The notes under the pieces: model-generated
The model's database searches: none
What the model saw: only the letters and a program-made list of their open reading frames with translations
What the model was told of the DNA's origin: nothing
Virus record (IMG/VR): IMGVR_UViG_3300022602_000083
Coordinates: 3,857 to 67,856 of that record
Source: a virus
Direction: 5' to 3' (one strand)
DNA: 64,000 nucleotides
In this document: positions 21,277 through 22,063 of the stretch, piece after piece
How positions within the stretch are numbered: the stretch's first letter is position 1
Layout of the letters: each line of letters opens with the position of its first letter
Position numbers and translations under genes: made by a program

Positions 21277-21429
21277 TTAGTTGGTTGCCTCTACACCTAC
21301 GTGTAGAGTAGTGATGCCGTCATTTAACAGCATCAATGCTTCTTGTCTTGTGCAGCCATGAAATAGTTGGGCCTCAATAATAAATAAGGCTTTATCCAAC
21401 CAGTTATCTGTTGTAATTTCAACTGACAT
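21277..21429 (-). CDS. 50 aa protein (not in ORF track)
   Basis: AGAAAGG RBS; MSVEITTDNWLDK... Confidence 0.55.
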   Translation of the reverse strand: MSVEITTDNWLDKALFIIEAQLFHGCTRQEALMLLNDGITTLHVGVEATN

Positions 21430-21458
21430 TGCTATGACCTTTCTCACGGTATAAGTAA

Positions 21459-21488
21459 TGAGCAGTTTTAATAGACATGCTCAGGTCT
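21459..21488 (-). ncRNA. H-type pseudoknot motif, copy 1
   Basis: AGAC-CU-GAGCA-U-GUCU-AUUAAAAC-UGCUC-A. Confidence 0.55.
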
Positions 21489-21560
21489 TCTAGTGTTGAG
21501 GGGAAAAGGGGGAATTTCGTGCCACGGCACTCCCATACACCCACAGGTACCTCACTAGCG

Positions 21561-21633
21561 TGCCCCCGGCTGGAATTGAACCAGCAACACCCACCTTAGG
21601 ACGATGGTGTTCTATCCATTGAACTACGGGGGC
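21561..21633 (-). tRNA. tRNA-Arg (anticodon CCT)
   Basis: Full cloverleaf: GCCCCCG/CGGGGGC acceptor, GTTC/GAAC D-arm, loop GT-CCT-AA, GCTGG-TTCAATT-CCAGC; no encoded CCA. Confidence 0.9.
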
Positions 21634-21636
21634 AGG

Positions 21637-21669
21637 TGAGCAGTTTTACCTCAGGTCATACTCAGGACC
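21637..21669 (-). ncRNA. H-type pseudoknot motif, copy 2
   Basis: GGUC-CU-GAGUA-U-GACC-UGAGGUAAAAC-UGCUC-A, ending 3 nt before the tRNA 5' end. Confidence 0.55.
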
Positions 21670-21677
21670 AAATCTAT

Positions 21678-21965
21678 CTATGACAATAGACCGTGCAGTT
21701 CTTCTGAAGAAAGGATGCGGTCAGTTGGTTGAGGCCAATTAACCCAGCCCTCTGGCTGTTCCTGTCCTTCTTCAAGCCATGGGGAAATACGAACTGCGTA
21801 AGGAACCTCCATTAGTCCTACTTCTGGATTTCCTGTGCCATTTTTGAATGCTTCTAGCGTAGCCTTGTAGATATCGTCTACATTATTGGCCGCTTCTACA
21901 TCCATAATGACTTGTGTAGCAACCATCATGGACACACGATGTGTGTATGTCGTTTGCTTAGTCAT
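21678..21965 (-). CDS. Hypothetical protein
   Basis: AGAAAGGG RBS before MTKQTTY. Confidence 0.65.
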   Translation of the reverse strand: MTKQTTYTHRVSMMVATQVIMDVEAANNVDDIYKATLEAFKNGTGNPEVGLMEVPYAVRISPWLEEGQEQPEGWVNWPQPTDRILSSEELHGLLS

Positions 21966-22063
21966 TTGTATCCCTTTCTGTATGTTTTGCGGATTGTTTG
22001 TGTTGGTGCATGCATGGTTTATACTCCCCATACTATGTGAGTTTATGTGCATACTATTCCTGT

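Follow-up and report, generated by a model that had tools for sequence, protein, structure and literature searches.

A stretch of viral DNA of 64,000 nucleotides (here called the window), part of the 67,856-base IMG/VR virus record IMGVR_UViG_3300022602_000083, carries on its minus strand two small H-type pseudoknots around a tRNA-Arg gene. We find that both copies belong to a very large family of H-type pseudoknots of about 30 nt, of which at least 497 distinct copies were gathered from contigs of uncultured viruses and from the genomes of bacteria in many phyla, and that both helices of the fold covary across hundreds of homologues. The family is abundant at gene boundaries of phages and bacteria and is absent from Rfam 15; therefore, it is overlooked by current genome annotation. 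It is a conserved, strand-specific RNA fold with defined placement and neighbours. We tentatively suggest that the knot might be a nuclease or ribosome roadblock, which caps the ends of processed message pieces; we offer this as our best guess, somewhat short of probable.

In each copy the first helix (P1) is topped by an 8-nt loop. The loop begins with a single nucleotide (L1), and its following part pairs with the sequence behind the spacer L3, forming the second helix (P2). The two copies are built as follows.

21669-21637, minus strand: pseudoknot copy 1, GGUC-C-UGAGUA-U-GACC-UGAGGUAAAAC-UGCUCA
21669-21666 with 21657-21654, minus strand: P1 of copy 1, 5' GGUC with 3' GACC
21665, 21658 and 21653-21643, minus strand: L1 (C), U and L3 (UGAGGUAAAAC) of copy 1
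21664-21659 with 21642-21637, minus strand: P2 of copy 1, 5' UGAGUA with 3' UGCUCA
21488-21459, minus strand: pseudoknot copy 2, AGAC-C-UGAGCA-U-GUCU-AUUAAAAC-UGCUCA
21488-21485 with 21476-21473, minus strand: P1 of copy 2, AGAC with GUCU
21484, 21477 and 21472-21465, minus strand: L1 (C), U and L3 (AUUAAAAC) of copy 2
21483-21478 with 21464-21459, minus strand: P2 of copy 2, UGAGCA with UGCUCA

The first-pass annotation of this DNA had proposed both folds, and its structural model is correct: both pseudoknots around the tRNA are real, as judged from the sequence and from the covariation of both stems in the family. The copies differ by two compensatory changes in P1 (GGUC/GACC versus AGAC/GUCU) and by a C-G to U-G change in P2, and they share CUGAG and UAAAAC without change, all as it had been read there.

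The pattern CTGAGN{8,30}AAAACTNCTCA occurs twice in the window against 0.01 matches expected from shuffles, and beyond these two copies it has no match in the 67,856-base record. With the covariance model described below, whose 105 training rows include the two window copies, copy 1 scores 38 bits and copy 2 scores 48 bits, and the next match in the window reaches 10.9 bits. Nested folding yields P1 for copy 1 and P2 for copy 2; since the helices are interleaved, only one helix per copy is expected from such folding. The L3 of copy 1 (21643-21653, minus strand) is unusually long and contains a second UGAG, which can form with the 3' strand a competing nested hairpin, seen in the minimum-energy fold.

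Fold and covariation of the family

All loci were fetched with motif-derived patterns, and the counts of genomic context given below describe the sampled sub-families and not the whole family. The pattern CTGAGN{8,30}AAAACTGCTCA finds at least 118 viral loci. In the first viral scan 110 of the 137 listed matches had at least three consecutive P1 pairs beside an 8-nt loop, versus about 5% by chance; the shortest form was seen in 83 of the 139 matches listed, with the window copies counted twice. A stricter pattern in species-representative genomes gave at least 118 loci, and P1 of at least three pairs was present in 113 of the 120 matches listed. A model was built from the first alignment of 105 copies (A1), which had been chosen for at least three P1 pairs and an exact P2. 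At E up to 0.1 this model gave 164 matches in 100 loci, and many of these lie outside the fetch pattern. The first-pass annotation had proposed such a model and a search of phage genomes as a check, and the covarying homologues were found in hundreds.

As P2 is invariant by construction in the first set, copies fitting no fetch pattern were collected, 103 in all. An ungapped alignment (A3) was made of 85 of them, selected for at least four P1 pairs, at most two changes per half and the commonest length, with the 18 copies of other lengths left out. Among its 82 distinct rows the four inner P2 pairs are changed on both sides in 5, 3, 4 and 5 cells and are unpaired in only 1, 1, 1 and 0 cells, the replacements seen being A-U, G-C, C-G, U-A and G-U; the two outer P2 pairs are frequently lost. 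None of the shuffles and slid registers approached the P2 covariation values of these rows. The same compensation is seen at the level of single variants: CCTAAG..GCTT, changed on both sides (loop G to A, partner C to U), occurs at no fewer than 114 viral loci, versus 35 loci for the mismatched single change CCTAAG..GCTC.

The consensus loop C-U-G-A-G-Y-A-H is 8 nt long and pairs with UGCUC(A) after L3. P2 consists of the core GAGY with RCUC, extended by one or two pairs beside it. C stands at L1 in 495 of the 497 copies, and L3, which is A-rich and mostly of 4-8 nt, ends with AAAC in 463 of them. P1 has 3-7 bp (mode 4) and is free in sequence apart from its C-G top pair, found in 104 of the 105 model rows and in all 82 non-fetch rows. 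Both window copies show the features that define the family, namely the hairpin with its loop, P2 together with an AAAC-ending L3, and an intergenic position on the sense strand. In a sub-class with AAAAGGCUCA in place of AAAACUGCUCA (L022, L042, L072, L077, L097, L102, L108 and others) the inner terminal P2 pair is lost; it is the source of most of the 21 unpaired cells among the 82 distinct non-fetch copies.

A structure-only descriptor with free P2 sequence gave 407 real versus 283 reversed matches, a background too high for use; its excess is made up entirely of the UGAGYA/UGCUCN family. A third helix that would close the knot was also considered and rejected, as the 5' and 3' flanks pair no better with each other than with shuffled sequences (3.87 vs 3.80 and 3.65 vs 3.73). 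The 35 nt before P1 of the viral loci fold better than the control (mean z of -1.33 vs -0.41). An example is a hairpin overlapping the stop codons in several lake phages.

A search of Rfam 15, which the first-pass annotation had likewise proposed, gave no matching family. At gathering thresholds only the tRNA is reported in the window region, and at E up to 10 nothing relevant falls on the knot in this region or in one bacterial copy; apart from the tRNA, the region yields only an artefact antisense to the tRNA and a weak match to cobalamin. The models of HDV, hammerhead and pistol ribozymes gave no match to the motif at E up to 10, in agreement with the lack of these cores noted earlier. Nor is the family described in the literature searched, which covered phage pseudoknots, DUF2800, RAGATH, theta ribozymes, intercistronic elements, and RNase J or exoribonuclease-resistant RNA (xrRNA) in prokaryotes; full-text matches to 10-mers of the motif were unrelated primers only. 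A catalogue of 10,006 viral candidate RNAs published in 2023 (PMC10690425) may contain the family. The main text of Weinberg 2017 (PMC5737381) mentions neither DUF2800 nor the knot.

Placement between genes

Most copies lie between protein genes. A crude longest-frame test on 344 viral copies puts the element on the sense strand of its upstream flank in 289 and of its downstream flank in 281, and copies are present in consecutive intergenic gaps. By gene orientation 141 copies lie between co-oriented genes, 9 at operon ends (SA) and 8 at operon starts (AS).

The upstream stop codon stands at least 9 nt before the loop, which gives a spacer to P1 of no less than 4-5 nt; most often it measures 5-9 nt, and hardly any copies lie nearer; in a separate class the loop's own UGA serves as the stop. 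In the mRNA channel of the ribosome about 4-5 nt is the nearest that a structure can approach the A-site codon without being unwound. The spacer therefore puts the knot just outside the terminating ribosome, where it is placed to stay folded during termination. The distance to the next start codon is broader, 3-186 nt; 55 copies lie within 40 nt of a start codon, and 47 of these have a Shine-Dalgarno word. The upstream gene families are diverse, with DUF932 the commonest (23 of 150). An A comes directly behind P2 in 81% of viral and 50% of genome copies, and the next 7 nt or so are poor in G and rich in U and C.

What stands behind the knot

A same-strand tRNA starts 1-16 nt after the knot in 47 of the 497 copies (42 of 370 viral and 5 of 127 genome copies). 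The tRNAs behind viral knots are of nine anticodon types, 29 of them being tRNA-Asp, and knots are also found in tRNA arrays, directly 5' of the tRNAs. A tRNA ending within 20 nt before the knot was seen once in 497 copies, and within 100 nt four times, window copy 2 included. Bracketing of a tRNA, as described for the window, is thus no trait of the family. The earlier proposal of a compact module tied specifically to tRNA excision is not supported, most copies lying between protein genes. The link to tRNA excision is too narrow, and copy 2 makes better sense as belonging to the gap between the next cistrons.

The DUF2800 RNA (RF02960) starts 1 nt behind the knot at six loci, and this RNA may have in the knot a 5' module or processing mark that has so far gone unrecognised.

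L020, 285-445: DUF2800 RNA
L050, 1616-1771: DUF2800 RNA
L148, 5432-5592: DUF2800 RNA
L163, 5051-5208: DUF2800 RNA
L200, 912-1071: DUF2800 RNA
L222, 1-137: DUF2800 RNA

A pattern for what we take to be the hammerhead core has matches within 110 nt downstream of 12 of 478 copies and upstream of one. At least nine loci have such a hammerhead-like core beginning 0-12 nt behind the knot, among them the type III cores at L136 (7380-7450, minus strand), L232, L004, L254, L295, L342 and L347. A manual parse of L136, which relies on the same presumed core, places the predicted self-cleavage site 7 nt behind the knot. Rfam at E up to 0.05 reports no hammerheads behind the knots.

Terminators are no general companion of the knot and are not enriched in phages: none was found at the window copies, viral copies have an intrinsic terminator in 6 of 172 cases versus 8 in the control, and genome copies have one at or just after the motif in 14 of 129 cases versus 5. 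A mimic of the tRNA acceptor end with CCA was rejected too, as NCCA behind P2 is confined to 20 of 174 viral copies, the majority of them at a single syntenic tRNA-Asp site, and to 1 of 129 genome copies. In about 8 of 33 copies of one bacterial class, and in none of the phage copies, the sequence after P2 resembles what we take to be the rrn boxA element.

The long gaps behind lake-phage knots contain promoter-like and repeated operator-like sequences 50-150 nt behind the knot. The repeated blocks include TGTGA-N6-TCACA palindromes, a recurring GGCGTGTCG word and -35/-10-like hexamers, and the TTATCCACA-like words in these gaps presumably resemble DnaA boxes. Such repeated blocks are present at the lake-phage loci L005, L008, L014, L042, L072, L074, L081, L101, L102, L108 and L114.

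Taxonomic distribution

The matches listed in the genome scan come from Saccharibacteria, Aminicenantes, Clostridia, Lactobacillus, Weissella, Nocardia, cyanobacteria and two archaeal metagenome-assembled genomes, with Firmicutes and Actinobacteria also represented. The copies in Lactobacillales lie in prophage head modules, in the order minor-capsid or Mu-F-like gene, knot, scaffold gene. Two cultured Lactobacillus phages, phi jlb1 and AQ113, give model matches of 22.9 and 29.6 bits, with the knot standing between a small ORF and the scaffold gene (L385, about 1503-1532; L386, about 1513-1542). The phages KC5a and Lj771 probably carry the knot as well, because the knot is the point from which BLAST aligns them to the L. 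kalixensis region. The occurrence in cultured Lactobacillus phages would open the function of the knot to direct bench testing. The family also reaches RNA viruses, since one copy (L367, 1984-2013, minus strand) lies in a 3,055-nt contig encoding a picorna-like RNA-dependent RNA polymerase (RdRP; Pfam RdRP_1), 8 nt past the replicase stop and with one A-C mismatch in P2.

At 32 genome loci from several bacterial phyla, Aminicenantes included (for example L128, 159-221, minus strand; L123; L144; L164), the knot overlaps the end of a conserved open reading frame (ORF) of 20 aa with the consensus M-K-R-F/Y-x-V/I-P-R-x-x-H-C-x-x-G-C-x-x-x-S. This ORF ends on the loop-internal UGA in 29 of the 32 copies. 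It comes with promoter-like and Shine-Dalgarno sequences of its own, and behind the knot stands an intrinsic terminator. A comparison with NCBIfam at E up to 10 gave no hit for the 20-aa ORF, and the genes neighbouring this class are housekeeping genes.

The window locus

The two copies stand among the following features.

21678-22052, minus strand: upstream ORF of 124 aa, stop TAG 21680-21678, no PHROG or Pfam hit
21633-21560, minus strand: tRNA-Arg with anticodon CCU, found by ARAGORN and scored at 61.3 bits by the Rfam tRNA model
21277-21447, minus strand: downstream small ORF, listed start GTG 21447, no PHROG or Pfam hit

P1 of copy 1 begins 8 nt past the TAG of the 124-aa ORF (ORF-124), and 3 nt, CCU, separate the copy from tRNA-Arg. 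The 5' end of a tRNA is the cutting site of RNase P, which for tRNA-Arg lies 3 nt behind copy 1. Copy 2 is intergenic: it starts 71 nt beyond the 3' end of the tRNA, has no ORF end upstream and ends 29 nt ahead of ATG 21429. This ATG, which stands behind the Shine-Dalgarno-like GAGAAAGG, is the likelier start of the downstream small ORF, preferred over GTG 21447. No sigma-70-like promoter or terminator-like site was found between the ORFs on the minus strand; therefore, a single transcript comprising ORF-124, knot, tRNA, knot and the next ORFs would be the simplest picture. About 60 nt between the tRNA and copy 2 (within 21462-21545) are common to the contigs of relatives, along with the knot. 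Similarity between the window and metatranscriptome contigs of relatives stops exactly at the 3' ends of the knots (for copy 2 at 21461/21462), and the same contigs have knots at other module borders; these are assembled contigs from four lake runs, which give similarity only and no transcript ends.

Proposed mechanism

We suggest that the element acts as RNA. Its sense orientation, the tolerated G-U pairs and the copy in the RNA-virus contig all argue for an RNA- rather than a DNA-level element. It would be transcribed within a polycistronic message and fold in the gap between two cistrons, where the knot might form a compact mechanical roadblock, which marks and protects RNA ends. An endonucleolytic cut just behind the knot would turn it into the 3'-terminal structure of the upstream piece, and this structure would stop 3'-5' exonucleases and so shield the upstream message. 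RNase P at a tRNA, a hammerhead, or a host endonuclease acting in the G-poor, U/C-rich tail could each make this cut. Counted in favour of the roadblock are the spacing from the stop codon, the tRNAs, hammerhead-like cores and DUF2800 RNA that begin shortly behind the knot, and the loss of similarity among related contigs at the 3' ends of the knots. By analogy with coremin, the roadblock knot of RNA viruses compared below, movers in the 5'-3' direction (RNase J-type exonucleases, or ribosomes that fail to stop) might equally be stopped, because the build of the family resembles that of knots which halt ribosomes and 5'-3' enzymes. For the window this would mean that copy 1 caps the message of ORF-124 after RNase P has freed tRNA-Arg, and that copy 2 stands at the head of the message of the following ORFs or insulates it; the 5' end of that message would otherwise be exposed by the 3' processing of the tRNA. 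A nuclease-blocking knot that protects the flanking mRNA pieces, which was among the functions proposed in the first-pass annotation, thus remains our best guess, though a tentative one.

Several points weigh against it. The knot is small and AU-rich, and its nested folds reach only about -7 to -8 kcal/mol; without added tertiary contacts or a supporting protein, such a fold would be a weak barrier to an exonuclease. That P2, L1 and L3 hardly vary in sequence suggests a specific partner over mere stability. In the bacterial class with the 20-aa ORF, the intrinsic terminator behind the knot already protects the 3' end. An asymmetry between operon ends and operon starts is absent (9 SA versus 8 AS copies), and the position favours neither direction of action. 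A downstream hairpin in the style of coremin is not enriched, as the 35 nt behind the knot fold with z of -0.35 versus -0.41 in the control (n = 164). Similarity between the window and metatranscriptome contigs of relatives stops exactly at the 3' ends of the knots (for copy 2 at 21461/21462), and the same contigs have knots at other module borders; these are assembled contigs from four lake runs, which give similarity only and no transcript ends.

A wider reading, which we regard as possible but doubtful, is that the family might be the first class of exoribonuclease- and ribosome-resistant RNA in prokaryotes, a universal and protein-free roadblock whose build is akin to that of coremin from plant viruses. 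It would be shared by DNA phages, many bacterial phyla and at least one picorna-like RNA virus, and phages would pair the knot with RNase P sites and hammerheads, so cutting their long messages into separately stabilised units. If the knot is a portable roadblock of 30 nt, many phages could by this means give neighbouring genes of one transcript different lifetimes without extra promoters or terminators. The xrRNA concept would then be extended from eukaryotic RNA viruses to bacteria and DNA phages, and synthetic biology would gain a very small insulator or stabiliser part.

Alternative explanations

The constancy of the knot could also mean that it is a recognition signal for a specific partner, which would bind it and cut or exert regulation where one gene ends and the next begins, with blocking being secondary. 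Such a partner might be RNase P or RNase Z, for which the knot would be a tRNA-like minihelix, another host RNase, or an RNA-binding protein of the phage or the host. The letters of P2, L1 and L3 are near-invariant across phyla beside a free P1, the A after P2 is followed by a G-depleted, pyrimidine-rich tail, and the knots of tRNA arrays stand directly 5' of tRNAs, all of which would fit a signal; the spread over Saccharibacteria, Aminicenantes, Firmicutes, Actinobacteria and cyanobacteria would point to a universal partner. We nevertheless consider this unlikely, as NCCA after P2 is rare in viral and genome copies alike, no co-occurring protein family was found among the diverse upstream genes (even DUF932 accounts for a minority), and the cutters, namely tRNAs and hammerhead-like cores, are supplied separately beside the knot. 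Still less likely, in our opinion, is a function coupled to translation, in which the knot would act on ribosomes at the end of the upstream ORF by stopping read-through or scanning, insulating cistrons, or tuning termination or recoding. The limit of 4-5 nt and the mode of 5-9 nt between stop and knot correspond to the geometry of recoding pseudoknots, and an ORF ends on the loop UGA both in the 20-aa ORF class and in Saccharibacteria. Moreover, coremin-type knots, which were screened in E. coli, are reported to block scanning ribosomes and to stimulate -1 frameshifting (PMC10321173). This coupling is difficult to reconcile with the copies that follow no ORF end (window copy 2 and the AS cases) and with the sequence behind the knot, which is a tRNA, an RNA motif or a ribosome-binding site with a new ORF and offers no extension frame; furthermore, the loop UGA has no frame preference relative to the upstream ORF (47, 39 and 32 copies).

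A small self-cleaving ribozyme, which would release tRNAs and message pieces and which the first-pass annotation had also raised, is very improbable. It would account for the many highly conserved nucleotides in a pseudoknotted fold and for neighbourhoods shared with hammerhead-like cores, tRNAs and phage RNAs. However, no HDV-like, hammerhead, pistol, twister or hatchet model of Rfam matched at E up to 10, and separate cutters (a tRNA with its RNase P site, or a hammerhead-like core) adjoin the knot directly behind it. To our knowledge, a knot of 28-33 nt is also below the size of any natural self-cleaving class. We give just as little credence to a recombination or cassette-boundary site at the DNA level, which would shuffle gene modules and to which the RNA fold would be incidental. 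The copies in consecutive intergenic gaps and the break of similarity at the knots among related contigs could be taken in this sense, but mosaic borders at conserved 30-mers are expected from homologous recombination anyway. Besides, 84% of copies are in sense with genes, G-U pairs are tolerated although they equal A-C mismatches on the other strand, the conserved interleaved helices are impossible in a duplex cruciform, and one copy resides in an RNA-virus contig. The preQ1-I riboswitch, a small H-type knot with an A-rich tail, was considered and rejected, as it gave no Rfam hit at E up to 10 and the copies follow ORFs, precede tRNAs and have diverse neighbours, unlike a riboswitch in the 5' UTR of queuosine genes. 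The knot is not a preQ1-I riboswitch, a known ribozyme or a terminator.

Comparison with known systems

The closest published relative that we found is the coremin motif (xrRNA-C) of beny-, cucumo- and other RNA viruses, for which the 20-mer GUCCGAAGACGUUAAACUAC is given (PMC10520033). Knots of this type are reported to stall the exoribonuclease Xrn1 and scanning ribosomes and to stimulate -1 frameshifting (PMC10520033, PMC10321173). Both coremin and the present family have a short first hairpin topped by U-A and C-G, a loop opened by C (essential in coremin), an A-rich spacer which ends with AAAC and is directly followed by the loop partner, and a location in 3' untranslated or intergenic regions. 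The GUC/GAC stem of coremin is present exactly in 84 of the 497 family copies, and 5 of these continue with GUUAAAC. Hepta- and octaloops are said to be tolerated in coremin (PMC10520033), and the loop of the family has 8 nt. However, the coremin loop is reported to require G at position 2 (YGAD/YGNNAD, PMC10520033), where the family has U. The helix between loop and spacer sequence consists of 5-6 Watson-Crick pairs in the family, whereas the corresponding contact of coremin is described as non-canonical. A second hairpin directly downstream, which coremin is reported to need for Xrn1 resistance, is not the rule in the family: in the window the tRNA comes after copy 1, and no hairpin comes after copy 2. 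In addition, the hosts of the family are DNA phages and bacteria, which do not have Xrn1. Hence, the family is not coremin as defined, though it may work like coremin.

Closer in principle, judging from the published account, is xrRNA-WCC, the Watson-Crick variant of coremin, a canonical antiparallel pseudoknot in which the hairpin loop pairs with sequence after an A-rich spacer and whose L1 is an unchangeable single nucleotide (PMC10321173); L1 of the family is a single nucleotide as well. The second stem of xrRNA-WCC has 3 bp and its L1 is G (PMC10321173), unlike the 5-6 bp and the C of the family. It is reported to stimulate frameshifting without a second hairpin and to need one for Xrn1 resistance, and in that account it comes from a screen and two viral species only (PMC10321173).

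The hammerheads described in phage and prophage operons (Perreault et al. 2011, PMC3088659) are likewise small structured RNAs in operon gaps. Unlike them, the knot lacks a hammerhead core, gives no hit to the Rfam hammerhead models and stands beside a cutter without being one itself. The HDV-like theta ribozymes (PMC10879173) are, similarly, described as small phage RNA motifs adjoining tRNA genes; the knot differs from them in having no HDV-family hit, in standing 5' of tRNAs and in that most of its copies are near no tRNA. The -1 frameshift knots of BWYV and SRV-1 (PMC10321173) are described as H-type, with a one-nucleotide L1 and an A-rich L3, as is the case here. The spacing of 5-9 nt from the ribosomal A-site codon is another likeness to recoding pseudoknots. 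In contrast to these, the family has no extension frame and is also found before tRNAs and in places where no ORF ends. The retroviral read-through knot is another recoding pseudoknot. Taken together, the family appears to be a variant of the small viral roadblock-knot kind.

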